Origin: an uncultured Candidatus Saccharibacteria bacterium
GTDB taxonomy: Bacteria; Patescibacteriota; Andersenbacteria; UBA10190
Direction of reading: 5' to 3'
NCBI GenBank assembly: GCA_964450915.1
Contig: CAYVFG010000001.1
Location: 1,694-65,693 of the forward strand
DNA length: 64,000 nucleotides
Part shown: positions 1-33,091 of the stretch, piece by piece
Layout of the letters: each line of letters begins with the position of its first letter
Numbering within the stretch: the stretch's first letter is position 1
The notes under the pieces: generated by a model
Database searches by the model: none
What the model was told of the DNA's origin: nothing
The model's input: only the letters and a program-made list of their open reading frames with translations
Program-made: the position numbers and the translations under genes

Positions 1-1
1 T

Positions 2-2161
2 ATCGTCAACAATTCGGCCAGCGTGCAGACGATTAGCTTTGGTGGTACGGGCATCACCCTGGGTGCAGCACAGACGTGGAATTCAGGCCTTGTCCCGTTG
101 GGGGGGCTGAGTGTGGGCTCTGCGGTTGATCTGGCAGGTCAGGCACTGACGGTCGATGGCACCAACAATACAACCATCTCGGGTGCGATCTCTGACACGG
201 TTGTCGGCGGCTCACTTGTCAAAAATGGTTTAGGAACGCTTCTTTTGAGCGGCACGAACACCTTCACTGGGACCACCACCGTCAATCAGGGCATCCTGCA
301 GCTTCAAAACGGAGCAGCGATTGCAGACACGTCCGCAGTGACCGTGACGGCACCAGGTTCACTCGACCTGCTCACAAGTGAAACCATCGGCAGCCTTGCA
401 GGCAGCGGCGACACCACCCTCAACGCCAATACCCTGACCACAGGCGGTGACAACACCTCAACCACCTACAGTGGTGTTCTGAGTGGCGTCGGCGGCTCAC
501 TGGTCAAAAATGGCGCAGGAACGTTCACGACATCGAACATCCTTCCCAACACCTATACGGGCACCACGGCAGTCAACGCGGGAACTCTCAATGTGCTGGG
601 CACCCATGCCGGTGGCGGAAATTACACCATTGCCGCAGGCGCCACGCTTTCAGGCACGGGAATCATCACAGAGGCTGCGGGAGCTTCCATCTTCAACAAC
701 GGGGCGATTGTTGTAGGCGATTCCACAGTCATTCCTGTTGCATCCACACTCTCAATCACCACCTCAGGCGCAGGCGCGATCACCATGGGAGCCGGCAGTA
801 CTTTGGCGGTCGATCTCTTCACCGGTGCCGGTCTTGGAAACAACACCGTCATTCCAGGTTCTTCTGACACGTTCAACCTCGGCGGCAATCTCAATTCTGT
901 TGCTGGCGGCACCCTGGTCATTGGCAATCCTACAGCGATGACAGGCTTCACGGGTGGAGACAGCTGGAAAGTGGTGAATCTCGTTCCAGGCTCCATTACC
1001 GGCAATCTGGGTCTCACCGGCAATCTCGACACCTCTGCTCTGAATCTCACAGCGACTCAGGTGGGCAATTTCAGCCAGACTTCCGGTGTCTTCACGATCA
1101 TCGACACCATCACCGGTTTGCAAATGGCCAACGCCATGGGGCAGGCCGTGCTTGCCAGTACTCAGAGTGTCCTCACGGATGTGAATGGACGCCTGTTCTT
1201 CCTCCGTGCGGGTCAGGGCGACCTGTCCGATGACAGCGAGTACGACCAGGCCGTGGTCAATGATCCGGGCAACGGTTCTGGCAAGAACCCTGCACCAAGA
1301 CCAACGGTTCAGCGCCGTCCCCAGACGGGTCTGTGGCAGGTTTTTGCCACGGCAAACTACAACAACGCCAGGCTCGGCGCTCTCGGCAGTCAGCAGGCGG
1401 GAATCCAGTCTGACAGCTGGAGTCCAGGAGTCGGCGCTGAGGTTCATGTCACACCGAATGTGGCCATTGGTTTCGCCCTCAACTGGCTGGAGTCCAAACA
1501 GACCTTCGGGAATGGCGTCGGCTCCATGGACATGAATGGTTATGCACTGAGCGCCTACACTTCTTATGTGAAGAAGGCATTTTGGGCGGATCTCCTTTAT
1601 AGCTTCGGCAGCTATGACATCGAAACGAACCGCAACCCGATCGGGTTCGGCATGGCTAACGGTAACACCGACGCCTACACCAACACGGTGCAGTTTAACT
1701 CGGGCTGGAACTTCCGTTTCCAGAACAACAGCTTGGTGACCGGTCCGTTCATTGGACTCGACTACACCCACGTCTCCATTGACGCCTATGGAGAGTCTGG
1801 TGGCGGCCTTGGGGCCCTGGCCTACAACAAACGTACCGCTGAGTCCCTGATCTCCCGCATTGGCTGGTCGGTGAGCAAGTATGTCAAAACAGACTTCGCC
1901 GTCATCACTGCACAGGCCCGTCTGAGCTACGAGCGCCAGAACTTGAGCAACAACAGCGGCGCCACCATTGGCCTCATCAATCAGCCATTCGTGGTAAGCG
2001 GCGGCAGTCAGAGCTATGGCCAGGATTACATGGTCGCAGGAGCTGGCCTGAACTTCCAGTTCACGCCAAACCTCGGTTTGCTCCTCAACTACCAGGGTCA
2101 GTTCTTCCGTCAGTCAGTGCAGGCTCATTACGTGGGCCTGCGCCTCAGCTACAAATTCTAA
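2..2161 (+). CDS. Autotransporter-family outer-membrane protein (passenger with beta-strand repeats plus C-terminal beta-barrel), 5'-partial: frame is open to the window start
   Basis: G/T/S-rich repetitive passenger (GTLLLSGTNTFTGTTTVNQGILQLQNG repeated); C-terminal beta-barrel-like domain ending ...LRLSYKF (aromatic terminal residue); intrinsic terminator follows. Confidence 0.7.
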   Translation: MVNNSASVQTISFGGTGITLGAAQTWNSGLVPLGGLSVGSAVDLAGQALTVDGTNNTTISGAISDTVVGGSLVKNGLGTLLLSGTNTFTGTTTVNQGILQLQNGAAIADTSAVTVTAPGSLDLLTSETIGSLAGSGDTTLNANTLTTGGDNTSTTYSGVLSGVGGSLVKNGAGTFTTSNILPNTYTGTTAVNAGTLNVLGTHAGGGNYTIAAGATLSGTGIITEAAGASIFNNGAIVVGDSTVIPVASTLSITTSGAGAITMGAGSTLAVDLFTGAGLGNNTVIPGSSDTFNLGGNLNSVAGGTLVIGNPTAMTGFTGGDSWKVVNLVPGSITGNLGLTGNLDTSALNLTATQVGNFSQTSGVFTIIDTITGLQMANAMGQAVLASTQSVLTDVNGRLFFLRAGQGDLSDDSEYDQAVVNDPGNGSGKNPAPRPTVQRRPQTGLWQVFATANYNNARLGALGSQQAGIQSDSWSPGVGAEVHVTPNVAIGFALNWLESKQTFGNGVGSMDMNGYALSAYTSYVKKAFWADLLYSFGSYDIETNRNPIGFGMANGNTDAYTNTVQFNSGWNFRFQNNSLVTGPFIGLDYTHVSIDAYGESGGGLGALAYNKRTAESLISRIGWSVSKYVKTDFAVITAQARLSYERQNLSNNSGATIGLINQPFVVSGGSQSYGQDYMVAGAGLNFQFTPNLGLLLNYQGQFFRQSVQAHYVGLRLSYKF

Positions 2162-2187
2162 GTCATTAACGTTCACCGTTAAATCCC

Positions 2188-2223
2188 GGGGGGCATTGCT
2201 GAAAGGCAATGCCTCCTTTTTTG
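2188..2223 (+). terminator. Rho-independent terminator after the autotransporter gene
   Basis: GC stem gggcattgc / gcaatgcc followed by tttttt. Confidence 0.6.
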
Positions 2224-2228
2224 TGGCT

Positions 2229-3353
2229 CTAAATTCCCGCACGTTTCGCCCGCAGCACTTCCTCCACCTCTCCCAGCGGCAGGCAGTTGATCACATCCTT
2301 CCGCGTGAGCCAGCCTTTGCGGGCGGCTTTGATGCCATAGATCACCGCCTGCAATCCGTGCGTGCTGTGGGCATCGGGGTTGATGCTGCATTTCACGCCT
2401 TTCGCTTTCGCGAGCTTCCACCAGCGCCAGTCCATGTCCAGACGCCACGCGCTGGCGTTGAGCTCGATGATGGTGCCGGTTTCCGCGGCGGCATCGATCA
2501 CGGCAGCCACGTTCACATTGTAAGCAGGGCGCTGCAGCAGCAGCCGTCCCGTGAGATGTCCCAGCATGGTGACGTGCGGATTCTCAATGGCTCGAATGAT
2601 GCGCTTCGTCATCTCCGCCTCGGGCAAATTGAAGACGTTGTGCACGGAGGCGACCACATAATCGAGCTGGCCCATAATCTCGTCACTGAAATCGAGGCTG
2701 CCATCCTTGAGAATGTCCACCTCGCTGCCGGCAAAGATGCGGAAGCCCTCTTCGGCCATCTCCTCATTCAGTGCCTTGATCTCTTCGATTTGTTTCAACA
2801 GTCGCTTCTCATCCAGCCCATTCGCCTGGAAAGACGACTTGCTGTGATCGGCGATGCCAAGGTACTGCAAACCCAGCTCATGCGCCGCCTCCGCCATCTC
2901 GCGCAAAGTCGCGCCACCATCGCTGGCGGTGGTGTGGTTGTGAAAGACACCGCGCAGATTCTCAAGCTGGATGAGGCGTGGCAGACCACCGTGCTCGGCG
3001 GCATCTATCTCGCCCGTGTTCTCCCGCAGCTCAGGATCGATGAAGTCGAGATCCAGCGCGCGGTAGAGTTCCGCTTCATCATGAACCGGTGGAATGACCG
3101 GCGCATCCGCATGATCCGGCACCGGCGTGAAGCCATACTCATTGAGCGACCAGCCACGAGCAAGCGCACGCTGGCGGATGGCCACATTGTGCTCCTTGCT
3201 GCCGGTGAAGTAGACCAGCGCAAAAGGGAACTCCTTGCTCGATACGGCACGCAGATCGCACTGCACCCCATGAGTGACGTGCACACTGGCTTTCGTCGGC
3301 CCTTTGGCGATGACATCCACCACCAGTGGCAGTTGCACAAAGGACTCGATTAC
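2229..3353 (-). pseudogene. DNA polymerase X family fragment (thumb + PHP phosphoesterase domain only); N-terminal 8-kDa/palm region missing; frame closes with a stop inside the first hairpin of the repeat island
   Basis: FALVYFTGSKEHNVAIRQRALARGWSLNEYGF (PolX thumb) followed by a PHP-domain histidine-rich region; no ATG start; in-frame stop at 3354-3356 coincides with hairpin 3354-3376. Confidence 0.55.
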
Positions 3354-3939
3354 CTAGTAAGATTTTTCACTTGCTCCGCGCCCCAGTCAAGACCAGCATG
3401 CTGGAGAAAACGCTACCTATCTTCACAGCATTTAACACCAGCAAGAACAAATTCCTGCTCACAACTCTACGGAACCATGCCATACGTTAGTTGACTCTAC
3501 TGAACTACGCGACGATACACTAGCAAAGTTTCTTGCTCGTAACTTCACACCGGCTTAGTGAGCTGGACGTTAGGTAGCGGTATGATACCAGCAAGAATTG
3601 CTTCCTGCTCTCCACAAAAGGCCAATCAAGTTTAGTTTAATCAAGTCCACTGAATTGTACTAAAGCACGCACCCTAGCAAGAAATAAATCTTGCTCACGA
3701 CATTATTGTAGCGAAGTATACAGCTCCTAATCGTAGGATACTGGACAATGCGATAACACCAGCAAAATTTCTTTGCTCTCTGCTTTAGTCTGCAAAGGGG
3801 AACAACGAATTACTGGAGTCCGCTCAAGTGTATACACTAGCAGAATTTTCATTCTGCTCGCCAAGCAGTACAGTCAACCTCAATTCAGGACAGGTTAAGC
3901 CACGGCAGCATGCCAACACCAGCAAACAGCTGTTTGCTC
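3354..3939 (-). repeat. Hairpin-unit array 1a: 8 units of conserved short stem-loop (AGCAAG-loop-CTTGCT) separated by ~50-65 nt of unique sequence; CRISPR-like but noncanonical
   Basis: Hairpins at 3354-3376, 3437-3460, 3519-3538, 3587-3610, 3674-3696, 3758-3778, 3836-3859, 3918-3939; loops differ; mismatches resolve to G-U pairs on the minus strand. Confidence 0.7.
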
Positions 3940-4050
3940 GCAACCACGCGAAACTATACGTGACTGAAACTCACGTAACGACACTGCACCGAACCTAATT
4001 GAATCAATTGTCAAACAACGATCAACATCCCCCTTTCTGCTGAATATCAG

Positions 4051-4088
4051 GAACGGATTAAAATAACATATTATCATATTTTTTGCAA
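4051..4088 (-). promoter_or_regulatory. Conserved AT-rich junction element, promoter-like (TTGCAA -35-like box directly abutting the upstream terminator T-tract), reading toward array 1a
   Basis: ggaacggattaaaataacatattatcatattttttgcaag; near-identical copies at 7378-7420 and 9606-9650. Confidence 0.4.
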
Positions 4089-4118
4089 GAAAAAAGCGAG
4101 AGTAATGAAACTCTCGCT
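4088..4118 (-). terminator. Intrinsic terminator (minus strand) closing array 1b / helicase transcription unit
   Basis: stem agcgagag...ctctcgct followed by a T-tract on the minus strand (A-tract 4088-4095 on plus). Confidence 0.6.
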
Positions 4119-4173
4119 GTGCACTGTTGTTAACTTCACAGGAGGAAGCAAAACAGCACTTTACTTAATGAAC

Positions 4174-4770
4174 ACTAGCAAGAATTTCATCCTGCCCTGG
4201 ACAATAGCCTAGCTAACTAAAGAACGCTGGAGCGAAGACTACTAAAGCTCAAATACCAGCAAAATTTCTTTTGCTCTATACTACACCAAGCAGCAAGGAA
4301 GTGTGCGTTAGTCTACCAGAGATCACGCTATTTTATAGAAGCGAGAATTCTAAAATTCCCGCCCTGGAACATAGGATAAGGTACTTGGCGGAAGCCCGGG
4401 ATACTCAGCCTAATTTAAACTAGCAAGTTTTCTTGCTCGTTATGCTACGTGAGCATACGTTAGTCCAGATTGCTTAAGTCTGCGACACTCCACTCCAATA
4501 CCAGCAAGAAATAAATCTTGCTCTACAGAAAGCATAAGAACAAATTACTGGAGCCAACAAGACTGGACACTATACACTGGCAAAATTTCTTTGCCCGAAA
4601 CGTTAGGCCAGCCTAATTAAGTCTAGCGAGCTACGACATACAGGACGACACTATGTACACTAGCAAAAAATCTTGCTCTTTACCGAAGAGAACTCCACAA
4701 AGCCCTGCGAGAGCCTACCTAACTTCAGTGTAAGATATAAGAGAAGCGAGGATGCAAGCATCCTCGCCCT
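4174..4770 (-). repeat. Hairpin-unit array 1b: 9 units; immediately downstream (minus strand) of the helicase gene
   Basis: Hairpins at 4174-4197, 4255-4276, 4339-4364, 4419-4438, 4500-4523, 4576-4596, 4658-4678, 4746-4767 (plus 4339 and 4746 long-stem gcgag variants); 4500-4523 identical to 9424-9447. Confidence 0.7.
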
Positions 4771-4815
4771 ACACTCGGCTTCGCTGCAATTCAGAGCAGG
4801 TCACCATACTTCACT

Positions 4816-6672
4816 TCATGTTCTCTGACTCAGCAAATCCTCTGCATCACGAATGCAGTTCTCAAACGGCAAGTCGCTTCGGTAGGATTTCTCCAACCAA
4901 GGAGGCAAAGCCCCCCACACAATCTTCTTGAATTGTTGCGAGATGAAGAATGTAACTCCAACATCTCGCGTACTTCGAACATTGCGTCCGCGCACTTGTA
5001 ACGCTTGCTGCATCACACGCCAATTCCACAGCGCCCACCTGGCACCACCGAACCGCTTCTCTTCGAACTGTGTTCCGGGATCCGTTGGTACAGGGTATCC
5101 GGGCCGCAGAAAGAAGATGATCGGTGCAGTCTGTTTTGGCAGATCAACACCCTCAGCGTAGTTGGAAGCAGTGCCTACCAAGCAGTCGCCTACCCCTTCC
5201 TTGAACTTGATTGCGGCTTGCTTTGCGGTAACGCCATTCCCGTAGCTGATCGCTTCAAGCTTCTCTTCTTTTGCAAGCTGAAGAAACTTGTCACGCTCAT
5301 CATTGGAGATGGTAACCACCAAGCTGCGATGCCCCTTGAGCGCAAATCGTTTTGCCGCACGAGCAATCTTTCGAATGCTTTGTGTCATGTCGCGCGCAGT
5401 CCGCGTGTTCATGGCAAGATTCGGCGTGTCCGTCGGCAAGTACAGCCTTGTATTTCCCGAAGGAAAGTTGGATTGCAACTGCAAGCACGGAAACCGAATC
5501 CCCGTTTCGTGTCCGAAGATTTCAGGATCACCGATCGTCGCAGAAAATGCGACAGTCAGCGGAGGCAGAATCTTTCGAATCAGCGGGGCCACATAATAGC
5601 ACCGCACCACGAGCTTGCACTCCACTAAGTCTCGCTCTCCTTTCTCGAACTTGTAGAAGGCACACGTGTAATTGAGCGGCTTTCGCTCTTCGGTCTCGAG
5701 CGAATACTCAAAAGAATGTGAATACCGGCGCAAATCTCGCACCAGTGTTTCCAATTTCTTGAGCGCCACTCGATCCTCTTTCGCGTCGATGGTTCCGTTT
5801 CTCACGGCCTTCTCAATACGCGAAAGAAGTTTTCCCGAATCCACGTCTTCCAAGATCACCATCAAGCGGCGAAGTTCTGCATCCGTAAGAAGTACTGGCT
5901 CGTCGAGTTTCCTCTTCTTGCAAATGTACTTCATGGAAGCAAGAAACTTTTCCAGCACTTCAACTTCCGGAGCATCTATCCGAGTCAGCAATTCGATAGA
6001 CCGTTCCAGATGGTAATCTGTAATGTCGTACGAAAGCGAACTGCGAACGATTTCCGCAATCCGATGCGCTTCATCAATCACGAGCGCGCCCGTTTCCGGG
6101 AACTCATGACTGAACAGTTGAGTGAACAAGTAGAACGACGTGGTGCAAACCACGACGCCCCCTTGCTTCGCTTCGAACTTCTGCTGAAGATACGGACAAG
6201 CAGTTGCCCCCGGCTCAAACGTTTCTCCTGTTGTTTGATCAACCCGGTGAGGGCATGCCTTCAACATCGAACACGGAACTTCGTCAGCTTTGATGGTTTT
6301 TGAATCCAACGTAAGCTGAACCAGCTCTTCGTCACCGATGACTGATTGCCCTTGGTAATACAAGCACGGATGCTCGCATCGCCCCAAGGCAATTTTTACG
6401 TCTGGAAACTCCTCCCTGATTTGCCCTACCAACGTTTTGTTGGGAGTGACAAAAAATGAGGTACCTCCATCGCGCTGCACCGATGCTTCAAGCCATGCTT
6501 TGGCAACTGCCGTTTTCCCTGAACCTGTCGGGGATTCAACGACCGCAGACCCGTTCTGGGCCAAAAATTCCATCATTTCATCTTGGCCTTTCCATGGGCC
6601 ATTTGCGTACCTTCCGCCTCGCGGAAAGCTAGCCTGCAATGCGTTCAGGCTAAGAGGGTTCTGATGTTTCAT
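4816..6672 (-). CDS. Rad3/XPD/DinG-like superfamily-2 helicase with Fe-S cysteine cluster between Walker A and B (Csf4/DinG-like)
   Basis: Walker A ESPTGSGKTAV, DEAH box VIDEAHRIAEI, Cys-rich insert (CEHPC, CSMLKACPH, ACPYL, VVVCTT) between them; start ATG at 6670-6672 (MKHQNP) with GAGAAGGAA RBS. Confidence 0.7.
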   Translation of the reverse strand: MKHQNPLSLNALQASFPRGGRYANGPWKGQDEMMEFLAQNGSAVVESPTGSGKTAVAKAWLEASVQRDGGTSFFVTPNKTLVGQIREEFPDVKIALGRCEHPCLYYQGQSVIGDEELVQLTLDSKTIKADEVPCSMLKACPHRVDQTTGETFEPGATACPYLQQKFEAKQGGVVVCTTSFYLFTQLFSHEFPETGALVIDEAHRIAEIVRSSLSYDITDYHLERSIELLTRIDAPEVEVLEKFLASMKYICKKRKLDEPVLLTDAELRRLMVILEDVDSGKLLSRIEKAVRNGTIDAKEDRVALKKLETLVRDLRRYSHSFEYSLETEERKPLNYTCAFYKFEKGERDLVECKLVVRCYYVAPLIRKILPPLTVAFSATIGDPEIFGHETGIRFPCLQLQSNFPSGNTRLYLPTDTPNLAMNTRTARDMTQSIRKIARAAKRFALKGHRSLVVTISNDERDKFLQLAKEEKLEAISYGNGVTAKQAAIKFKEGVGDCLVGTASNYAEGVDLPKQTAPIIFFLRPGYPVPTDPGTQFEEKRFGGARWALWNWRVMQQALQVRGRNVRSTRDVGVTFFISQQFKKIVWGALPPWLEKSYRSDLPFENCIRDAEDLLSQRT

Positions 6673-6758
6673 GACCTTGCGTTCCTTCTCATTAATCATC
6701 CAAATTGTCAAACAGCACTGTTCGCAGCGCCAAAAAAGGCACAAGCTACGAACTCATT

Positions 6759-6788
6759 TTTATAGCATATCTTACTATTTTTGTAAAG
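6759..6788 (-). promoter_or_regulatory. Sigma70-like promoter for the helicase gene (TTTACA-N18-TATAAA)
   Basis: -35 tgtaaa at 6783-6788 and -10 tttata at 6759-6764 read on the minus strand. Confidence 0.4.
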
Positions 6789-6798
6789 TATCTTTGGG

Positions 6799-6832
6799 TA
6801 AAAAAAGAAGCAGGCGTTTTGGAACACCTGCT
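6799..6832 (-). terminator. Intrinsic terminator (minus strand) closing array 2a
   Basis: agcaggcgttttggaacacctgct stem-loop followed by T-tract (A-tract 6799-6807 on plus). Confidence 0.6.
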
Positions 6833-6895
6833 CGGTAACTTGCTTCACTGTGCCTAAGTGGACATCAGGACAAAGAACAACGCCTCAGTGGATAT

Positions 6896-7321
6896 ACCAG
6901 CAAGAATAAACTTGCTCTAGACTACTCGGAAGAATACTTCACTCGAGGACAGGTTGCGCTACACCAGTGCATTACACTAGCAAGCCGAAGCTTACTCAAG
7001 ACTCAGGGGTACGCCAGATTAGGCTGCTTAGCGAAACCTCGCGCTAGGCCATAACACTGGCAAATCGCAATTTGCTCCCTACACGACATTAGTTTGCTTG
7101 GCTAGGGTCTACAGTGCAGAAACGCACTATACAAAATCAAAGAGTAGCAAGAATTATTTCTTGCTCTGGGGTGAAAAGGACCACAGGATACGGTAGTGAA
7201 CTGCGACAAACTAGAAACACCAGCAAGAATAAACTTGCTCTCCACACCTACACAACTTTGCAACAGTATGCGAGACGCCAAAGTACTGAGGAATAACACT
7301 AGCAAGAAGTTATTCTTACCC
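6896..7321 (-). repeat. Hairpin-unit array 2a: 6 units
   Basis: Hairpins 6896-6917, 6976-6997, 7056-7077, 7143-7166, 7219-7240, 7298-7321. Confidence 0.7.
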
Positions 7322-7377
7322 TACAAAAAATGGCAATCTAGACTACTCGACCCAAGCCCACGGAATTTAATGAGTTG

Positions 7378-7455
7378 TTAAAGAACAAACTAAAATAACA
7401 CAAGATTATATATTTTGCAAGTAAAAAAAGAAGCAGGCGTTTAGAAACACCTGCT
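7378..7455 (-). terminator. Terminator (7423-7455) plus conserved promoter-like junction element (7378-7420) separating arrays 2b and 2a
   Basis: agcaggcgtttagaaacacctgct + T-tract, then TTGCAA and AT-rich box; near-identical to 9606-9685. Confidence 0.55.
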
Positions 7456-7510
7456 ACGCACGGAGCGCGAATTAACTCTACGTCAGAACGCTGTAGTTAA
7501 CTTCATTACC

Positions 7511-7783
7511 CTAGCAAGGAAGAAACCCTGCTCATAACCGTACTTACAAGACACTTAAGCAGGCAGCTGTATACTGCAGAGCGCATAACTACATACACTA
7601 GCAAGAAATGAATCTTGCTCTGCACGTTGCTTTGCTGCTGAATAATGGACTGCAGATAGCTGCACCTAACCGCGCATACCGGCAAGAATGCTCTTGCCCG
7701 CCACCCTAACCAACTGCTCAGCAATGGAGAGGACCCCAGTTTACCTTACTCAGAAGTAACAATGGCAAAGCGATCCCTTGCTC
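7511..7783 (-). repeat. Hairpin-unit array 2b: 4 units; begins 18 bp after the stop of the 211-aa RAMP-like gene (likely co-transcribed)
   Basis: Hairpins 7511-7533, 7597-7620, 7678-7699, 7761-7783. Confidence 0.65.
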
Positions 7784-7800
7784 GAACCTGAACGAGACAA

Positions 7801-8436
7801 TTACGAAGTTTGTTCGTTCCATTCACGAACCCGAAATGCTCCATACGGCCCCTTCTTATTGGGACGATACAATCCTAGCCCTTGACCTTGTCCAGCCATC
7901 TGAAACAATCGAACAAGTTTTTCACGAAGTATCATGTTGTGATCATACGAAATGTTGATCACGAATCCCCACTGGTCAAACCGGGGATATGAAGTGTAGA
8001 CCAATCCTCGGTGTCTCGATGTTTGAGGTGATATGTGACGTACGTGGCATACCCAATCGGGCTCTCGTTCGTCATGCCCGTTGGAAAGAACCGTGAATTC
8101 ATCTTCGAAACGAATGACCTCACTGATAATGTCTTCCGCGCTTCTGCAGCATCTAAGCGAGTTCTGACAACGAAGCGCAGCAACTACTGCCCCGCAAAGC
8201 ATTGAATTTGGTATCGCCACTTTACCCGCCGGATTCCGATAGATGCATGCTGCGGCACGATCTCTAAAAGATTCTCTTTTGATGACACTCATCACTTCTT
8301 CGGAAAATTTGTTCATGATGAGCGGACTTGTACCGATGCAGGCAATGGCAACTGAGCGCATGTCTGCTTCAGGATCTGCGACTCGACCAATCAGTATGCG
8401 GTCATTTACGATTACCATACGACGAATCTTCCCCAT
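7801..8436 (-). CDS. RAMP-like protein (Cas5/Cas6-like size, C-terminal glycine-rich loop), 211 aa
   Basis: C-terminal AGQGQGLGLYRPNKKGPYGAFRV glycine-rich loop; internal IPNSMLCGAVVAALR motif; paralogous to 11550-12206 and 10440-11348; GAGGAA RBS. Confidence 0.45.
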   Translation of the reverse strand: MGKIRRMVIVNDRILIGRVADPEADMRSVAIACIGTSPLIMNKFSEEVMSVIKRESFRDRAAACIYRNPAGKVAIPNSMLCGAVVAALRCQNSLRCCRSAEDIISEVIRFEDEFTVLSNGHDEREPDWVCHVRHISPQTSRHRGLVYTSYPRFDQWGFVINISYDHNMILREKLVRLFQMAGQGQGLGLYRPNKKGPYGAFRVREWNEQTS

Positions 8437-8543
8437 TATTTATTCCTCAAATTGGAACAGAACAATCAAAAAATCATCCAATAGAATCATCTATTGGAAC
8501 ATGATAATTTAGCATAATATTGAAATAAAGTCAAAATTTACGC

Positions 8544-8575
8544 AAAAAAAGAAGCAGGCATATAAAACACCTGCT
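8544..8575 (-). terminator. Intrinsic terminator (minus strand) closing array 3
   Basis: agcaggcatataaaacacctgct + T-tract (A-tract 8544-8550 on plus). Confidence 0.55.
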
Positions 8576-8628
8576 CTAAAAGAAGCTACAGTGAACCTGG
8601 CTAGAATCTACGCTAGGACACGCAAATA

Positions 8629-9532
8629 CACTAGCAAGGGAACCCCTGCTCTGTGCCGTATTGAACCGCACGTTAGTTTACGCTGCGAGACCAAACGGCA
8701 ATACCAGCAAGACTAAACTTGCTCTCCCAGGACACAGTAATCTAGGTTACTGTACTACGCTCAAGTGATCTCTACAGAACAGAATAATACTAACAAGAAT
8801 GACAACACTCTTGCTCGATACGGCACCCTAGGAAACGTAACTCAACCCTAGAGTAGCGCTGACACAAGCAAAAACTTGCTCTCAACGAAACCTTTGTTCG
8901 CCTAACACCAGCCAACCGAGGGACACTGGGCATCAGAACACGCCAGTGCAAACAATAGCAAGATTTTTCTTGCTCGACACCAAAGGTGACGGGACTGAAC
9001 TACAGGCCAGAAAACTATATACACTAGCAGGAAGAGCCCTGCCCATAACTGCTGTGCGCACTAGTTGACGGGAACACACGTAACCCTGGGGGACCTAATA
9101 CACTAGCAAATCGGAACTTGCCCAACACCTTAGCCGGCATTAACACACTAAACGCAAGCCTAGCGGAACTAAGACAGAAGCAAGCAACGCTTGCTGATTA
9201 CTAAGGCGAAGAAAACTCTGCTCAAGTCAAGGACTCTCAACTCAAGTCTACCTAAAATACTAGCAAGGAAATTCTTGCTCAGCATGACACACTACCGCTC
9301 AGCACAACAGACTTCTGAAGAAAGCTACAGGCTAGAGAAGATTAATACTAGCAAGAAAACTTGCTCATCACTTCAGAAAGGAAAACGTTGCGAAAGTAGA
9401 CTGTGCGTTACTCTGGGTAATACACCAGCAAGAAATAAATCTTGCTCGCTAGCGGAGCGTATAATAGCGAACTCAAGAAAACCTGGCGGGGCTGCACTCC
9501 ACTTCAACACTAGTAAGAAAGGCTTCTTGCTC
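8629..9532 (-). repeat. Hairpin-unit array 3: 12 units
   Basis: Hairpins 8629-8651, 8703-8724, 8789-8816, 8864-8883, 8954-8975, 9023-9044, 9102-9123, 9177-9197, 9259-9280, 9347-9366, 9424-9447, 9509-9532. Confidence 0.7.
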
Positions 9533-9605
9533 TTTAGTACACTCGAAAATGGGCCACGAAACTAGGCAAGAGCAAACCTAAGTTCACTACACGTACTTCT
9601 TAAGT

Positions 9606-9685
9606 TGTTAAAGAACGAATTAAAATAACACAAGATTATATTTTTTGCAAGTAAAAAAAGAAGCAGGCGTTTGGAAACACCTGCT
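9606..9685 (-). terminator. Terminator (9653-9685) plus conserved promoter-like junction element (9606-9650) between arrays 4 and 3
   Basis: agcaggcgtttggaaacacctgct + T-tract; TTGCAA abuts the T-tract; AT-rich box follows. Confidence 0.55.
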
Positions 9686-9732
9686 CGAGACTGAGCCTAA
9701 GCCCACTAGAGAGCACGTAACATCACGTGAAT

Positions 9733-10305
9733 ACTAGCAAGAGACTTCTTGCTGCGCGCCAAAGATAACGACAAGAAAGAACACGATACTACGCCAGACG
9801 AACATACACCAGCAAGTCGAAACCTGCCCCAAACGCCACCGTGACATACAATATCGTACGACACTCAAACAAGCTATACTGAATCCAGCAAACCAGCAGA
9901 ACTATTTCTGCCCTCGACAAAACGGCGCCGTAGACGACTTGAATATAGGGTACTGTGCTAAACCAAATACACTAGCAAGGCTTGGCCCTGCTCCTCACGA
10001 AAGACGAGATTACCCCAGCAGACTCAACTTTAGAGTGCAGTGCGATAACACAAGCAAGAAAATTCTTGCTCTCGAGAACGGGGTGCTTTACGCCGGGGTA
10101 CGTAAGCCGACGCCAGGGTAACTTATAACACAAGCGAGCAACTTCTCGCTCTGCACCAAACCAAACTGGAATGTAGGTAACAGTGTCGTAGCGCAGAATA
10201 TCACACAAGCAAGAATAAACTTGCTCACCACTATAGCGGACCGTGCCAGGCATGAGTCCAGTCGACGTGACGAGAGCACATTATAATAGCAAGAGAGTCT
10301 TGCTC
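9733..10305 (-). repeat. Hairpin-unit array 4: 8 units
   Basis: Hairpins 9733-9754, 9808-9829, 9892-9913, 9971-9993, 10049-10073, 10129-10151, 10204-10226, 10287-10305. Confidence 0.7.
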
Positions 10306-10365
10306 ACAAACAATAGTCGAACGGACCGGAACAAACTGCACTAAAGCACGCTTGACGTTAATAAA

Positions 10366-10398
10366 GAAGCGGGCAATTCAGATGAATCACCCGCTTTG
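10366..10398 (-). terminator. Probable terminator after the 312-aa RAMP-like gene
   Basis: aagcgggcaattcagatgaatcacccgctt stem-loop with weak T-tract on the minus strand. Confidence 0.4.
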
Positions 10399-10439
10399 GA
10401 CTGCGCTGCAAAGCAGGTTAGTCAACAGCAGAACAGTAT

Positions 10440-11348
10440 TTACACCAGCGAGATGCCGTATGCCTGCTTGGCAAATGATGTTTGTCGAGGAGTGGAAAAT
10501 CTCCCACCCGACCGAACAAATGGTTCATCAAGCTTTTCGTACGTCACCCGCTCACCAGGTACCAAGAACTGCCGAAGTGGGCGCTTCGGAGCGTCTCGCC
10601 ATCCGACGCGCGCCGTAATCCGCTGATCACCCACGTAGGTGATGATCGTGCCGACACCTCGAGCTTGGTAGAAACTTTCCACCACGCCTTCGTTGTCTTG
10701 AAGATCATGCGGAACTTGCAACTCAGGCTCCTCCACATACTCCGCTCCCGAAGGAATGACGAGTTCTGGACGAACAAGTTGTTCCATCAACATCCAGTCT
10801 GCCAACAAATTGTTGAACGACTGGTGCCGTTCGAGCCGCGGAAATGTTGGTCCGTCTCGATCAACGCATTGCAATCGATCATAGGCAAGTTGAACGGTGA
10901 GAAAGAAGTTGCCGCCTTGCGAGACGACCGCCACCTTCCACACGTTCATAAGATTCGTAGGCGAGCTCCCGTTCAAGACAAGCCCTGCAATGCAGAGCAT
11001 GTTGTTGGGGTAGCTCACGAACGATTCGCCTTGGCCATCGGTGCTGGCTTCGACCGGCATCTTAATGCCGTACACCTTCGATCCAGAAGGAAGTCCGCGA
11101 GCGGCTACTGCCGCTTGCATCTCCTTCTGAAATGGCTTTTTGGGCTCGCCAGGCGCAGCCCAGTCTCGCTGAAGCCTGCACTCGTCGCTGCCTTGTCGGA
11201 TAAATCCGAAGCAAGGAACGCCGGGGTCAACCGTGGCATCCAACACGACATGCCCAGAATAGAGCTTGCCCATGGACCCGTCTTCCGCAACGTCGATCAA
11301 TCGACCTTGCTTGTAGACATTCAGCGTAACACCAGGAATCCGAATCAT
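10440..11348 (-). CDS. RAMP-like protein, ~303 aa (Cas7-like size), paralogous motif to the two ~215-aa proteins
   Basis: YPNNMLCIAGLVLNG motif shared with IPNSMLCGAVVAAL / LPAQMLIAALVTAG; upstream TTGACA-N17-TACAAA promoter; fully antisense ORF 10482-11375 judged to be a shadow. Confidence 0.4.
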   Translation of the reverse strand: MIRIPGVTLNVYKQGRLIDVAEDGSMGKLYSGHVVLDATVDPGVPCFGFIRQGSDECRLQRDWAAPGEPKKPFQKEMQAAVAARGLPSGSKVYGIKMPVEASTDGQGESFVSYPNNMLCIAGLVLNGSSPTNLMNVWKVAVVSQGGNFFLTVQLAYDRLQCVDRDGPTFPRLERHQSFNNLLADWMLMEQLVRPELVIPSGAEYVEEPELQVPHDLQDNEGVVESFYQARGVGTIITYVGDQRITARVGWRDAPKRPLRQFLVPGERVTYEKLDEPFVRSGGRFSTPRQTSFAKQAYGISLV

Positions 11349-11425
11349 GATTCCAACCCTTCTTTTGCAAATTGACAACGATCAACCACACAATCTCGAA
11401 AGGCACTCCCAATCGAGAACATTGC

Positions 11426-11454
11426 TTTGTAGCATGACTTGCATAAAATGTCAA
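11426..11454 (-). promoter_or_regulatory. Sigma70-like promoter (TTGACA-N17-TACAAA) for the 312-aa gene, directly abutting the upstream terminator
   Basis: tgtcaa 11449-11454 and tttgta 11426-11431 on plus. Confidence 0.45.
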
Positions 11455-11488
11455 GAAAAAAAGAAGCGAGAGTAATGAAACTCTCGCT
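11455..11488 (-). terminator. Intrinsic terminator after the 218-aa RAMP-like gene (same hairpin family as 4088-4118)
   Basis: agcgagagtaatgaaactctcgct + T-tract on the minus strand. Confidence 0.6.
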
Positions 11489-11549
11489 ATTTACTTCTCC
11501 TAACGTTGAATTGGGAACAGATAGACGTTTCAAGACACGTCCGAACGAA

Positions 11550-12206
11550 CTAAGCCGCCGCTTTGCCTTCTTCCTTTCCGTCGACCACGATCTTGATGGT
11601 GTTGTCGGATGAAGCGACAGCGTCGTCGTTCCATTCGATGACCCGGAACATTCCGTACGGCCCCTTCTTGTTCGGGCGGAACGATCCGAGTCCCTGGCTG
11701 GTACCGGCGTTGGCGAACAGCTTGAGAACCGAGTCGCGTCCGGCGATCTTTTCGTCGTACGTGAGCTCAACTTCGAACGCCCATTCGTCGCATCGCGGAC
11801 GGACGACGCACACAGCCACGGGACTCGCCGAAGCATTGCTGACGCCTCGCCTGCTGTCGGGAACCCATGTCGGCTCCTTCCCATCCCGACCGTTCGTGAG
11901 GTACAGGTGCTGGCTCGTCACCGTCAAGAAGTCGAACAAAGTCGTGGTCTGCGCTGTCGAGACCTGCTTCTTGCCGAGCTTGACATTGCGACCAGCGGTC
12001 ACCAACGCTGCGATCAGCATCTGTGCCGGCAGGGCGAGCTTACCATCCTTGTCGGTGTAGACCTTTTCCTTGGCCTTTTCCTCTTGAGGACGATCCTTCT
12101 GGAGTTGGAGCCGAACGCCGGTATCGAGGCTTTTGAGCACCTCTTCCGACATCCGATCCATCAACAAAGGGCTGATCCCCACGCACACGCATCGAACTTT
12201 TCGCAT
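11550..12206 (-). CDS. RAMP-like protein (Cas5/Cas6-like size, C-terminal glycine-rich loop), 218 aa
   Basis: AGTSQGLGSFRPNKKGPYGMFRVIEWND loop nearly identical to the 211-aa paralog; LPAQMLIAALVTAGR motif; GGAG RBS. Confidence 0.45.
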   Translation of the reverse strand: MRKVRCVCVGISPLLMDRMSEEVLKSLDTGVRLQLQKDRPQEEKAKEKVYTDKDGKLALPAQMLIAALVTAGRNVKLGKKQVSTAQTTTLFDFLTVTSQHLYLTNGRDGKEPTWVPDSRRGVSNASASPVAVCVVRPRCDEWAFEVELTYDEKIAGRDSVLKLFANAGTSQGLGSFRPNKKGPYGMFRVIEWNDDAVASSDNTIKIVVDGKEEGKAAA

Positions 12207-12303
12207 GGCTGAACTCCAATTCTTCTATTGTAAAGACACGAAACGATTGTTCCATCAAGACCTTTTCTTGCGGAACAAATGACCCTAGCATAATGATAAA
12301 ATC

Positions 12304-12352
12304 TTGTCAATAGCAAAAGAAAAAGACCCCGATGCCACGTGGCAAAGGGGTC
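12304..12352 (-). terminator. Terminator (gacccc...ggggtc + T-tract) with abutting TTGACA -35 box; marks the upstream boundary of the island operons
   Basis: Same terminator-then-promoter architecture as the internal junctions. Confidence 0.45.
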
Positions 12353-12377
12353 AGGGCAAATTCACCCTAAAACATTA

Positions 12378-12560
12378 TTACGACTTCTTGGCATTTTGAG
12401 AAAGATGAGCGTACTTGTTTTGCGCCTTCCCTCTCCTCAAGCGCCTGCTTTTGCGAGTCTCGCCGCCCGGTTTCTTCATCTTCTTGCTGCTGCCGCTTTT
12501 CCCACTTGTACCAGTAAAGTGGGTACTTTTGTGAGAATGCCCACGATTACTACGAGCCAT
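12378..12560 (-). CDS. Small lysine/arginine-rich hypothetical protein (60 aa)
   Basis: MARSNRGHSHKS...; followed by the terminator at 12316-12352; no family recognised. Confidence 0.3.
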   Translation of the reverse strand: MARSNRGHSHKSTHFTGTSGKSGSSKKMKKPGGETRKSRRLRRGKAQNKYAHLSQNAKKS

Positions 12561-12678: not shown

Positions 12679-13341
12679 GTGATATTTATGAATATACGAA
12701 ACACGTTTATAAAAACTGTCGGATTTGCTCTCGTACTTGTAAGTTCATTTTTACTTGTACCAGTAACGCATGCATCTACAGGATTACTTGATCGCGTACA
12801 TGAAGCGCTCGTTACTGCCAATCTTCCCACTGACCAAAAAACGCAGCAAGCATACGACGTATGCGTTATCAGCGGACACTATACAACATTCGAACAATTG
12901 GTAAACGCAATGAAATGGCAAAAACAACACGGCCATACTATTCCAGATGTAATGAAGTGCATGGACACGAAGAATGTTTGGAAATTCACCGGAGAAGTCA
13001 CAGAAGTAAACAAATGGAAGCTGGAAACAGTTGGTGTTACAAAAAATGGATTGGAAACTCGGCCGAAGTTCGATATTACCAACCATACCGTTGTAAAACA
13101 TGGCGTGCTGTTATTCGATGCAAACTACCAGATGCACTACAACGTGAAGGATGAAATTCGAAGAGGTTCTGCCGTTACCGTATGGGCAACACACAACAAT
13201 GAAGCGCTGATTATCCAGAACAATGCGCCGCACGGACAAGGAGACTATTACGGACACGTTGATTGCCCGTCATGCCAAGTAGACAATACATTTGCCGCAA
13301 CCCCAGATCCGATTATCAACGAATATCACTGCGAAGATTAA
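12679..13341 (+). CDS. Secreted hypothetical protein (signal peptide), paralog of 13480-13896
   Basis: AGAGGTGA RBS; N-terminal hydrophobic signal; C-terminal VTVWATHNNEALIIQNNAPHGQGDYYGHVDCPSCQ shared with the neighbour; terminator follows. Confidence 0.6.
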   Translation: MIFMNIRNTFIKTVGFALVLVSSFLLVPVTHASTGLLDRVHEALVTANLPTDQKTQQAYDVCVISGHYTTFEQLVNAMKWQKQHGHTIPDVMKCMDTKNVWKFTGEVTEVNKWKLETVGVTKNGLETRPKFDITNHTVVKHGVLLFDANYQMHYNVKDEIRRGSAVTVWATHNNEALIIQNNAPHGQGDYYGHVDCPSCQVDNTFAATPDPIINEYHCED

Positions 13342-13363
13342 CTCGAAAGCAACGCATGAAGTA

Positions 13364-13400
13364 TCAATACCCCCGTCATTAGCGGGGGTATTGATTTTTT
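13364..13400 (+). terminator. Rho-independent terminator
   Basis: tcaatacccccgtcattagcgggggtattga + tttttt. Confidence 0.65.
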
Positions 13401-13479
13401 GTCAGCAAATTATAACGCATTGCGTTTGCGAATACTGCCATGATTTGTATGGTGGATATATGAAAGAAGGTGATAGCGT

Positions 13480-13896
13480 ATGAAAACATTACACAAGATA
13501 CGCGCAGTAAGCGCCGCAGTTGCTGTTATTATTTCAATCGCTTTCTTTCAGTTTGCGCGTGCCGCAGACACCACATTTACTCCCGGAACCTGGGTATTTA
13601 CCGGCATGGTAACGGAAGTAAATCAGAACAAGATTGAGTTATTTGGAATGAATGCAAACGGAGTAGAGGCATGGCCAAAATTCAGCATCACGCCCGATAC
13701 TCAAGTAAAAAACGGGGTCTTATTGTTCAATGCAAGCAACGACGTTCGATGGAATGTTCCCAACGAAATCCAGCGAGGATCATCGGTAACAGTATGGGCG
13801 ACCACATCCGGCAAGGCAATGGTTATTAAAAACAATGCTCCGGCAGGCCAAGCAGACTACTACGGACAAGTTGACTGCTCGCATTGCGGCAGTTAA
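13480..13896 (+). CDS. Secreted hypothetical protein, shorter paralog of 12679-13341
   Basis: GAAGGTGA RBS; signal peptide; VTVWATTSGKAMVIKNNAPAGQADYYGQVDCSHCG. Confidence 0.6.
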   Translation: MKTLHKIRAVSAAVAVIISIAFFQFARAADTTFTPGTWVFTGMVTEVNQNKIELFGMNANGVEAWPKFSITPDTQVKNGVLLFNASNDVRWNVPNEIQRGSSVTVWATTSGKAMVIKNNAPAGQADYYGQVDCSHCGS

Positions 13897-30506: not shown

Positions 30507-31847
30507 CTAAACGATTCGAATATTTACCCTGTCTTTAGCGACACAGATCGAATTATTTATAGCATAGCATTCGACATAAGATCTGCTCGGAAATGCAGTG
30601 CTCTCTATACCATTTTTCGTACCGCCTTTAGTAATTTCACCTCTTGGATCTTTAGAATTATCACTATTCTTAACCTTCCACCAATAATCATCTGCTCCGG
30701 TTTCATTATTTCTGATAGAAAATCTTATTTTTCGTGTCCTATGACCGCCCGAGGAAACGCCATTTTTTCTTAAAAGAGGCGTTGCTTTTAACCAGCCATG
30801 CAAGAAGCCGCTAAGGGGGTGAACATTCCCATCAATTTTAAATACCAGGCCCTGATCAATCAGAGTTTTGATTTTAAAATCGAATAGATATTCTTCCGAT
30901 GCTATTCTTGAAGTAAAATCAATTTCCATTAGTTTTTCTATCGAACCTTCTTCGCTGAGTCGCTCTAGCTTGATTAGAAAATTATCCCTCGCTGTTTTGA
31001 TTTTTTCCTTCTGAACCTCCGTTAGCTTGTCTAGATAGTCATCAATAAATTTATCGCTATTTGCACGGTCATGAATTTGGTTAGGCTTATTTATTATATC
31101 CGGCAATTCAACAAAAAATTTAAAAATGGCATCAAATATCTCTAGATTATTGTTCTCTTGGAAAAATATTGTGACAATTTGCTCAAGATGAAATGACTTT
31201 AGTTTGAGCTCATTATCCATGTCTTCCAAATTATTTTTCCATTTTTTGACAATCTTGGAAGTTTTTCTAAATTCTCCGCTGGTAGCATTATCTATTTCCG
31301 AAGCCACTTTAATATATCCCCTAGGATCAGATGTAATCCATCCCATATCGCCATGCTGCTGCGAAAGCTTCTCATAATACATAGTACGGTTTTTATGTTT
31401 TTCCTGAATCACTTCCGGCACCTTATATACATCTTCACTAAATTCATTTTTTGAGAAAATATAAACAGGAACAATATCAACAGAGAATACCTCCTCGCTA
31501 CTCTCAAAATATGCAACAGTTACAGAGTGGGTTTGTAGCTGCACTTTAATCTTATAATCAGTAGGGTTGCTATAGTCGCTTTCAATTTTATCCCGCAATT
31601 CTTCTAAAGAGTCTAATGGATTATGAATATTTTCATCCCAATTTCCCAAAAAATACAGGATATCAAGGTCCTGTACATGGGTAATAGCTGTAAATCGCGG
31701 ATACGATCCAATTTGGATACAATTATTATCCCCTAGCAAATCCTGAAAAGATTCGTAGATCTCCTTAATTTGTTCCCGCTCACCCTCCTTCGGAGATAGC
31801 GTTCGTGCGTAACTCCGTAACTTTTCGTTAAACTTATCTTTTTTCAT
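30507..31847 (-). CDS. Minimal nucleotidyltransferase, SMODS/CD-NTase-like (446 aa) with uncharacterised C-terminal region
   Basis: IGSYPRFTAITHVQDLDILYFL (GS...DxD NTase motif) and downstream FSVDIVP third acidic residue; AT-rich. Confidence 0.5.
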   Translation of the reverse strand: MKKDKFNEKLRSYARTLSPKEGEREQIKEIYESFQDLLGDNNCIQIGSYPRFTAITHVQDLDILYFLGNWDENIHNPLDSLEELRDKIESDYSNPTDYKIKVQLQTHSVTVAYFESSEEVFSVDIVPVYIFSKNEFSEDVYKVPEVIQEKHKNRTMYYEKLSQQHGDMGWITSDPRGYIKVASEIDNATSGEFRKTSKIVKKWKNNLEDMDNELKLKSFHLEQIVTIFFQENNNLEIFDAIFKFFVELPDIINKPNQIHDRANSDKFIDDYLDKLTEVQKEKIKTARDNFLIKLERLSEEGSIEKLMEIDFTSRIASEEYLFDFKIKTLIDQGLVFKIDGNVHPLSGFLHGWLKATPLLRKNGVSSGGHRTRKIRFSIRNNETGADDYWWKVKNSDNSKDPRGEITKGGTKNGIESTAFPSRSYVECYAINNSICVAKDRVNIRIV

Positions 31848-32391: not shown

Positions 32392-32417
32392 ATCTTATCC
32401 ACAGGTATAATGAAAAT

Positions 32418-33038: not shown

Positions 33039-33091
33039 TCCGAACTATTCTTTTTGGTCAAAAATAATCAATCTTCTGATTTAGCAATTCG

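Follow-up and report, generated by a model that had tools for sequence, protein, structure and literature searches.

VIPR (Viral Interference Programmable Repeat) systems were described in 2026 as a means of non-contiguous RNA-guided DNA recognition, and were proposed to be older than CRISPR (bioRxiv 10.64898/2026.04.26.720920). According to the available text of that preprint and of bioRxiv 10.64898/2026.04.26.720927, which deal with the systems of Escherichia phage SUSP1 and of a prophage of Pseudomonas fulva, Vipr, a minimal RAMP, forms polymers on a vrRNA that consists of 9-16 YNNGG pentamers and a structured 3' tail; it reads double-stranded DNA via the NN dinucleotides and skips one target base at each repeat. 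VIPR loci also carry accessory vap genes, which in types III-V encode nucleases or helicases; the Methods name NNNGG, YNNNG and NNNNG as variants of the repeat; and a phage or prophage location is typical but not obligatory, the chromosomal share of VIPRs being 25.5% (available text of bioRxiv 10.64898/2026.04.26.720920). Here we describe positions 3356-12206 of a 64-kb stretch of DNA (the window), which very probably represent a chromosomal VIPR locus of a probable Patescibacteria/candidate phyla radiation (CPR) bacterium.

On every computable feature except the canonical GGY consensus, the evidence supports membership of this locus among the VIPRs, and it is not a CRISPR-Cas system. Like those of SUSP1 and P. 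fulva, it combines a homologous RAMP of ~200 aa, with a single RRM, a G-loop and a thumb Arg, with flanking co-oriented RNAs in which about 8-13 pentamers of alternating conserved and hypervariable bases precede a structured 3' tail. There are no cas1/cas2 genes and no CRISPR array, and an accessory DNA-acting gene is present. By contrast, the pentamer is (G/C)(T/C)NNN instead of GGY-NN; the G-loop Asp (SUSP1 D177) is replaced by Ser/Ala, and the position of SUSP1 H17 is occupied by Asp, where GGY-type relatives within this branch of the family have Asn; the tail is a simple 7-bp hairpin instead of a pseudoknot; SUSP1 has four guides, as against about 51 in six arrays here; instead of a single small vap there are two Vipr paralogs, an OB-fold protein and a DinG helicase; and the replicon is a Patescibacteria chromosome, not a phage. 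The locus would be a large and cleanly delimited natural VIPR outside phages, with its about 51 guides housed in the reduced genome of an uncultivated member of the Patescibacteria.

Vipr paralogs, OB-fold protein and helicase

All features in 3356-12206 lie on the minus strand. The protein-coding genes, in transcription order, are as follows.

11550-12206, minus strand: vipr1, primary Vipr protein of 218 aa (profile match to SUSP1 Vipr)
10440-11348, minus strand: accessory gene, 302 aa, with OB-fold/cold-shock-like domains in its predicted model, candidate vap
7801-8436, minus strand: vipr2, diverged Vipr paralog, 211-aa ORF with a homologous core from M26 (coordinate 8361)
4816-6672, minus strand: DinG/XPD-like superfamily 2 (SF2) helicase of about 618 aa, candidate vap (Pfam and PADLOC profiles)

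An earlier note on this DNA, made from the letters and a list of open reading frames (ORFs), had taken the 211-, 302- and 218-aa proteins for three paralogous RAMPs in the size classes of Cas5, Cas6 and Cas7. The 211-aa and 218-aa proteins are indeed true paralogs, with 35% identity over 194 aa (BLASTP, E=1e-41). They have in common the C-terminal block QGLG[SL][FY]RPNKKGPYGxFRVxEWN that had been pointed out, and the DNA of this G-loop block retains 75% identity over 71 nt between vipr1 and vipr2. The proposed N-terminal similarity holds for the segment G(I/T)SPL(L/I)M..(M/F)SEEV. The 'MxKIR' assigned to both is not a homologous position, since the alignment pairs the first residue of the 218-aa protein with residue 26 of the 211-aa ORF. 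The first 25 residues of that ORF form an extension that its homologs do not have, although its ATG at 8436 is preceded by a good GAGGAA ribosome-binding site.

Both small paralogs belong to the Vipr family and not to Cas5, Cas6 or Cas7. Single sequences compared with the PDB by phmmer matched the SUSP1 Vipr protein (36pp) weakly, at E=0.0086 and 0.14. A 26-member family profile matched the same entry at E=1.1e-14, with residues 1-196 on 1-193; this was the only PDB match of the profile, with zero Cas proteins. The AlphaFold2 model of the 218-aa protein (pLDDT 88.5, pTM 0.82) has a single RRM core, and its top Foldseek matches in the PDB are all Cas7-family RAMPs, namely Cmr4, Csm3, type VII Cas7 and Cas7-11 (probability 1.0, E about 3e-6 to 1e-4, TM about 0.45-0.58), with no Cas6 entry among the top 50; these scores come from a fold library older than the release of the Vipr structure. 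The RAMP assignment of the earlier note was thus correct for the ~215-aa paralogs, by both the SUSP1 Vipr profile match and the Cas7-type model, and wrong for the 302-aa protein.

The assignment to a Cas5/Cas6/Cas7 trio was rejected, as scans of the three proteins with Pfam, NCBIfam, PADLOC and PHROGs gave no match to any Cas or Csf model. At E<=1 the Pfam, NCBIfam and PADLOC models matched none of them, apart from SurE of NCBIfam, whose match to the 211-aa protein is negligible (E=0.17), and none of the 53 homologs of Vipr1 contains a Pfam domain. Both paralogs match phrog_4652, a family of unknown function (Vipr1, E=1e-19). With the Cas7 subunits of other systems (Csm3, Cmr4, type VII Cas7 and Cas7-11) the Vipr fold shares the RRM core, the G-loop and the thumb, but at 9-17% identity, and Vipr1 is smaller, without catalytic-loop or second-RRM elaborations. 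Vipr guide units are of 5 nt, as against 6 nt for Cas7 (available text of bioRxiv 10.64898/2026.04.26.720920 and 10.64898/2026.04.26.720927).

Vipr1 is a single-RRM RAMP with the G-loop G172-L-G-S-F-R-P-N-K-K-G-P-Y-G185 and a disordered C-terminal tail. The thumb Arg R138 and the G-loop Arg R179 of SUSP1 align with its conserved residues R136 and R177, and both the thumb R136-P137 and the G-loop G-L-G-S-F-R-P...G are conserved across the family. Vipr2 has the G-loop G-L-G-L-Y-R-P, is missing ~10 aa in the helical-bundle segment and is without the C-terminal tail. Its ortholog in a related locus (L006; 182 aa, 41% identity) has the same deletion of ~10 residues and is likewise tailless; only 2 other close representatives were found among 1.84 billion proteins. 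The C-terminal tails of the Vipr1 clade (11550-11625 in the window; P0020, P0038, P0040, P0045 and P0046 among the homologs) are of low confidence in the models, and several end in Ala-Ala(-Ala).

The 302-aa protein, to judge from its predicted model, is not a RAMP and is unrelated to either paralog. The model matches only OB-fold/cold-shock domains. In sequence, the similarity to the supposed paralogs amounts to 9-residue BLASTP matches (E=0.097 to the 211-aa protein, E=3 to the 218-aa protein), and hhalign gives its family profile a probability of 0.5% against the Vipr family profile. The motif 'PNxMLC', said to be common to all three, is carried by only two of them, the 218-aa protein having LPAQMLIAAL at this place. 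In the AlphaFold model the corresponding stretch of the 302-aa protein, YPNNMLCIAG, is a beta-strand, and since the protein is not a paralog and its model is OB-fold only, the sharing is due to chance. Only seven homologs are known from our searches; they adjoin a vipr gene wherever the contig was fetched, and the gene is limited to the subclade of loci L003-L009.

The helicase gene starts at the ATG at 6672, in an ORF that reaches back to a TTG at 6744. Its product matches Helicase_C_2, DEAD, DEAD_2 and ResIII in Pfam, XPD in the PDB (E=1e-4) and, over the full profile, typeIV_DinG of PADLOC (PDLC01439, E=4e-41). Subtype-specific Csf4 models match it at E=8e-5 to 0.04; TIGR03117 (E=0.0018) and the YoaA/DinG models of NCBIfam remain far below cutoff. 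In the Patescibacteria clade, each of the 12 loci with enough flank has the gene beside vipr; of the other related loci that were fetched (66 viral, and 16 genomic with a GGY-type G-loop), none has it there. It encodes the best-conserved protein of the set, with 77-88% identity where Vipr1 has 57-88%. By elimination within the available text of the VIPR preprint, type IV is the likely helicase type of VIPR, to which the locus may belong.

Type IV-A CRISPR-Cas does not cleave its targets; interference comes about through binding and the action of the helicase. The present locus resembles it in the combination of a RAMP backbone, presumably forming a ribonucleoprotein (RNP), with a helicase of the XPD/DinG family, and in having neither a nuclease nor an adaptation module. 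It differs in that there is no Csf1/Cas8-like protein, Cas5, Cas6 or repeat-spacer array, in that the guides are pentamer-coded, and in that Csf4-specific models match the helicase only marginally.

Six arrays of pentamer-repeat RNAs

In transcription order, ORF-free stretches of 1.9 kb follow the 302-aa gene, of 1.0 kb vipr2 and of 1.45 kb the helicase gene. The GAGCAAG...CUUGCU hairpins mentioned in the earlier note are real and numerous: copies of the form G-AGCAAG-loop-CTTGCT, at a spacing of about 67-93 nt, fill these stretches. They are the 3' tails of VIPR-type pentamer-repeat RNAs and not CRISPR repeats. The arrays and the terminators of the adjoining genes are listed below.

11465-11488, minus strand: intrinsic terminator downstream of vipr1, AGCGAGAGTTTCATTACTCTCGCT with a T-run behind it, identical in sequence to the array E terminator
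10367-10396, minus strand: intrinsic terminator after the OB-fold gene (terminator scan)
9661-10375, minus strand: vrRNA array A, 9 units, 8 with hairpin tails, the last tail being the terminator hairpin 9686-9661
8552-9600, minus strand: vrRNA array B, 13 units, closed by terminator 8576-8552, with the conserved terminator-promoter module 9603-9696 before the array
7432-7800, minus strand: vrRNA array C, 4-5 units, directly downstream of vipr2, terminator 7455-7432
6808-7385, minus strand: vrRNA array D, 7 units, terminator 6833-6808, with module copy 7373-7466 before the array
4095-4830, minus strand: vrRNA array E, 9 units, downstream of the helicase gene, terminator 4118-4095
3356-4010, minus strand: vrRNA array F, 8 units, without terminator, abutting a 5'-truncated PolX gene

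The segments between the hairpins have a periodicity of 5 nt. In 30 such segments the Fourier signal at period 5 reaches z=12.2 for T, 8.9 for A and 5.0 for G relative to shuffled sequences, and all other periods stay below about z=2. When the segments are phased, position 1 of the pentamer is G (0.57) or C (0.25), position 2 is T (0.73) or C (0.17), and positions 3-5 are close to uniform. The pentamer is thus of the form (G/C)(T/C)NNN, with G/C at 82% and T/C at 90%, which corresponds to YNNNG in the register of the VIPR preprint.

This pattern is confined to the locus. A position weight matrix (PWM) of 9 pentamers, applied to both strands of the 64 kb, gave 28 matches, all of them on the minus strand within 3382-10366; there were none on the plus strand or elsewhere in the window. 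The same scan also brought to light the two arrays on the far side of the helicase gene, which the coordinates of the earlier note do not include. Sliding-window period-5 power was discarded in its favour, as it missed even the known arrays, because the phase is reset at every hairpin.

A dynamic-programming parse yielded 51 candidate vrRNA units, 50 of which have 8-13 pentamers. Within a unit, a 5' RGTRT handle (A/G; G 83%; T 97%; G/A; T 97%) is followed by the pentamers, and these by G and the hairpin. Among 41 aligned copies of the hairpin tail, 95.5% of the positions of the 7-bp stem are paired and 5 of the 7 pairs show changes on both sides; none of 500 shuffles reached the observed values of pairing and covariation, and slid controls pair at only 26-58%. 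The hairpin is present in the minimum free energy and centroid folds of all five units tested, and the pentamer body has no consistent fold. The same class of tail occurs in 40-69 copies in each of the related loci L003, L004, L006 and L009, nearly all on the vipr strand (1-2 opposite).

Transcription signals agree with this arrangement in strand and position. Of 28 terminator-like sites, 26 are on the minus strand, where they bound the arrays. Terminator stems of the form AGCAGG...CCTGCT share their base with the unit hairpin, so that the terminator doubles as the last tail of its array. After each terminator there is a promoter-like module, CTTGCAAAAAATATAAT..TGTTATTTTA, which is kept in L003 and L004. 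The 24-nt sequence AGCGAGAGTTTCATTACTCTCGCT is found at both 11465-11488 and 4095-4118, 7 kb apart, and the terminators of L004 are near-identical to it (AGCGAGAGTTTCACTACTCTCGCT).

None of these RNAs corresponds to a catalogued family: a search of 3000-12500 against Rfam, with E<=1 accepted, had no match, nor did the whole window when gathering thresholds were applied, and there are no hammerhead ribozymes between the units. Tandem Repeats Finder (TRF) reports no tandem arrays at the locus, and the hairpin 'repeat' copies are 66-93% identical to a reference copy, with variable loops.

Relatives, guide content and alternative explanations

The closest relatives found by genome scan are from Candidatus Andersenbacteria, Parcubacteria, Paceibacterota and Saccharibacteria; relatives in IMG/VR do not exceed 41% identity. 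The order vipr, OB-fold gene, arrays, DinG-like helicase gene, arrays recurs in L003 (on an 850-kb contig), L004 and L006-L009. These loci sit among core genes, between rpsL-rpsG-fusA and tuf-rpsJ in L003 and L006-L008; the window and L004 have typA, a DEAD-box helicase gene, msrB and macAB as neighbours. No phage genes were found around L003, L004 and L006-L009. This helicase-linked VIPR with its variant GYNNN repeat appears to be vertically inherited on the chromosome, among core genes.

All loci of the close clade carry co-oriented S-T-NNN arrays, and the Patescibacteria loci L003-L015 combine them with the gene order of the window. Relatives at 24-34% identity (from Magnetococcales, Geobacter, Chloroflexota and others) have canonical GGY-NN arrays, as do 41 of the 66 viral loci, co-oriented with vipr. 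The GYNNN clade is associated with a G-loop GLG(S/A)FRPN and an Asp at the position of SUSP1 H17, the GGY clade with GLGDFRPA and an Asn at that position; L012, L014 and L015 are intermediate. In SUSP1, D177 and H17 bind G1 (bioRxiv 10.64898/2026.04.26.720927). Since G1 and the G-loop Asp have been lost together, it is plausible that the loss of G1 from the repeat co-varies with that of the Asp.

Comparison of two related loci suggests that recombination adds or removes arrays and vipr2 in the form of cassettes. L008 and L006 have 99.9% nucleotide identity, yet L008 is without the vipr2 cassette. The missing part (11334-12765 of L006, comprising vipr2 and one array) is flanked by direct repeats of 134 nt that are 97% identical. 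Its analogue in the window is a 94-nt repeat pair, 7373-7466 and 9603-9696, which flanks array B, vipr2 and array C.

Guide content turns over rapidly, only 2 of the 51 window units being detectable by BLAST in L004, whose Vipr1 is 87% identical. For 11 pairs of orthologous guides, chosen on identity of the three variable positions with equal weights, identity by position was 0.60 at position 1, 0.75 at position 2, 0.90 at n3, 0.82 at n4 and 0.57 at n5 (n5 versus n3+n4, Fisher p=3e-8). The main conserved information therefore resides in n3 and n4, as in the canonical NN; this comparison indicates that two of the three variable bases of the variant repeat keep most of it, and that the former G1 position is relaxed in orthologous guides. 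A stop-codon test on the triplets, which asked whether n5 pairs, was not significant (p=0.08). Six-frame codon-likeness favours an antisense frame with n5 at the wobble position (105 of 136 guides free of stops, as against 94-96 when shuffled), at p of about 0.01-0.02 before correction for multiple testing and with a second, unpredicted frame also scoring. A correlation of the dinucleotide with codon positions 1-2 (r=0.68) vanished after correction for positional composition.

On the reading as a VIPR, Vipr1, a minimal Cas7-like RAMP, would polymerise along the vrRNA with one protomer per pentamer, each protomer sequestering the (G/C)(T/C) and exposing the variable bases, which would pair with DNA non-contiguously. 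Each pentamer would then read three target bases, that is, with a three-base target period. About 51 vrRNAs would be transcribed from the six arrays, with a separate promoter and intrinsic terminator for every array, and would consist of the constant 5' RGTRT handle, 8-13 pentamers and the 3' hairpin, the end-of-array tail doubling as terminator. The DinG/XPD-like helicase might be recruited to the bound target and extend interference there, by analogy with type IV-A CRISPR; the role of the locus would be defence. The OB-fold protein and Vipr2 might be lineage-specific accessories, with single-strand binding or filament capping as possible roles.

Several observations weigh against this reading. 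Most described VIPRs are found in phages, whereas this locus is surrounded by housekeeping genes. Canonical GGY is absent from it, as a GGY PWM finds nothing in the close-clade loci, G1 having been lost and G2 often being C; the 1-nt skip rule of SUSP1 is for this reason an extrapolation here. The variant repeat does not exclude VIPR membership, since the preprint accepts YNNNG, NNNGG and NNNNG. Searches for targets were negative: six skip rules applied to 0.94 Mb of local sequence scored like the shuffled null, five guides written as exact patterns of 10 x NNx had 0 matches in IMG/VR, and fifty 'spacers' of concatenated triplets had no blastn match among the INPHARED phages. The guide at 9973-9913, which is conserved in the window, L003 and L004, has 8 exact matches in metagenomes under the NN+skip rule (L098-L105, in 4 sequence families), but this is about the chance level (3-4 by a rough estimate), and none of 157 guides provided a second match to those 8 contigs. 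With numbers near chance and no converging guide, these matches were rejected as targets. The analogy with type IV, moreover, is functional and not phylogenetic, given the strong match to generic DinG and the weak ones to Csf4-specific models.

As to the metagenome contigs themselves, all 8 carry the alleles of L004 type (AT and TC at pentamers 7 and 8), and the site in L102 lies antisense within a MOSC-like gene (2634-3377), at the motif RKDIRCMVVN.

The RAMP fold of both paralogs, a DinG-family helicase (PADLOC typeIV_DinG, E=4e-41), hairpins at a regular spacing of about 75-90 nt and the absence of adaptation genes, as in type IV, might also be ascribed to a degenerate type IV-like CRISPR-Cas system, in which Cas5/6/7-type RAMPs were accompanied by hairpin repeats cut by a Cas6-like paralog, spacers of ~55 nt and DinG as Csf4. 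However, no Csf1/2/3/5, Cas5, Cas6 or Cas8 model of Pfam, NCBIfam or PADLOC has a match, the Csf4-specific models are weak, with scores of E=0.002-0.012, the third protein is an OB-fold and not a RAMP, and the family profile matches Vipr and no Cas protein in the PDB. The would-be repeats are short and degenerate, are kept by compensatory change and not by identity, and form no array detectable by TRF; the would-be spacers are 5-nt periodic with a conserved dinucleotide, unlike any CRISPR spacer. This explanation is largely refuted, and we regard it as the least probable of those considered. Scarcely more probable is a scaffold or decoy RNA, such as a type III toxin-antitoxin-like repeat or a sponge for Vipr, whose variable bases carry no targeting information. 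Tandem repeat RNAs act as antitoxins in ToxIN-type systems, and both the lack of a target for any guide in our searches and the chromosomal position among housekeeping genes would be in keeping with such a role. A scaffold would not be expected to have its guide content almost wholly replaced between close relatives, nor to keep n3 (0.90) and n4 (0.82) while the 'structural' positions and n5 drift, which is the behaviour of information-bearing dinucleotides. It also leaves the conserved DNA helicase unexplained, and homologous Vipr/vrRNA systems have been shown experimentally to be programmable DNA binders (available text of bioRxiv 10.64898/2026.04.26.720920 and 10.64898/2026.04.26.720927).

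A VIPR domesticated for gene regulation, in which roughly 50 guides silence the cell's own genes or those of a host cell instead of phages or plasmids, would explain the conserved, vertically inherited position (fusA-tuf in L003 and L006-L008, next to typA in the window and L004), the absence of phage matches in the IMG/VR and INPHARED searches, and the antisense match of one conserved guide to a MOSC-like cellular gene in metagenomes. We consider this improbable, though less so than the two preceding explanations. The guides have no self-matches above the shuffled null in the related loci or in the 64-kb window, which was all of the genome that was searched; the metagenome matches are within chance expectation, with no second guide converging; and rapid guide turnover fits an arms race better.

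If the locus is accepted as a VIPR, one may ask where it stands relative to CRISPR. Several features point to an intermediate: a backbone Vipr1 together with a bundle-deleted Vipr2 whose cassette is gained and lost, a DinG helicase with strict co-inheritance, an OB-fold subunit, 40-70 guides per genome with a constant 5' handle and a 3' hairpin, and pentamers whose G1 recognition was lost in step with the change of the G-loop Asp to Ser, which may free a third base of the pentamer to read the target and give a 3+2 as against a 2+3 code. A diverged second RAMP, handle/hairpin boundaries and a DinG partner are what the model of CRISPR origin predicts for such a stage. That this clade, with its CRISPR-like complexity and relaxed code, is a living intermediate between minimal phage VIPRs and class 1 (type IV-like) systems is nevertheless rather unlikely in our judgement. 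Relative to the available text of the 2026 preprints, the second RAMP paralog, the OB-fold partner, the repertoires of 40-70 guides, the handle/hairpin architecture with terminators as tails, and the apparent co-variation of G-loop and repeat may be new. The natural guides and proteins could be used to ask whether variant pentamers alter the recognition code.

Other features of the window

Directly upstream of vipr1, on the opposite strand, two small proteins of 220 aa and 138 aa are encoded at 12679-13896. By eye they share the C-terminal block VTEVN..K.E..G....G.E..PKF.IT..T.VK.GVLLF.A....NV..EI.RGS.VTVWAT...A..I.NNAP.GQ.DYYG.VDC. L004 has genes of 216 aa and 138 aa at the same position, and there is no sign that the pair belongs to the VIPR locus.

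At the other end of the locus, positions 1-3380 of the window have a GC content of 54-57%, compared with about 45-48% for most of the rest. This part contains an autotransporter gene (23-2161; Pfam Autotransporter, E=2e-37), which is unexpected in a Patescibacteria genome, and the PolX gene (2229-3338), which is truncated at its 5' end to the thumb and PHP domains and against which array F ends without a terminator. The GC shift, the autotransporter, the truncated PolX and the unterminated array together suggest that a chimeric join was made in assembly, or that the DNA was rearranged, at about 3340-3380.

A low-GC island at 30507-37101 (0.37-0.40), at a distance of about 20 kb from the VIPR locus, is a defence island in its own right. 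It encodes a CBASS-type oligonucleotide cyclase (30507-31847; PADLOC PDLC00785, E=9e-176) and a type III restriction-modification pair, Res (33092-35428) and Mod (35425-37101). Further along, at 54619-58093, there are two adjacent paralogs of about 580 aa whose C-terminal parts match the methylation-associated defence models mad3/mad8 of PADLOC (E=1e-22 to 1e-24).

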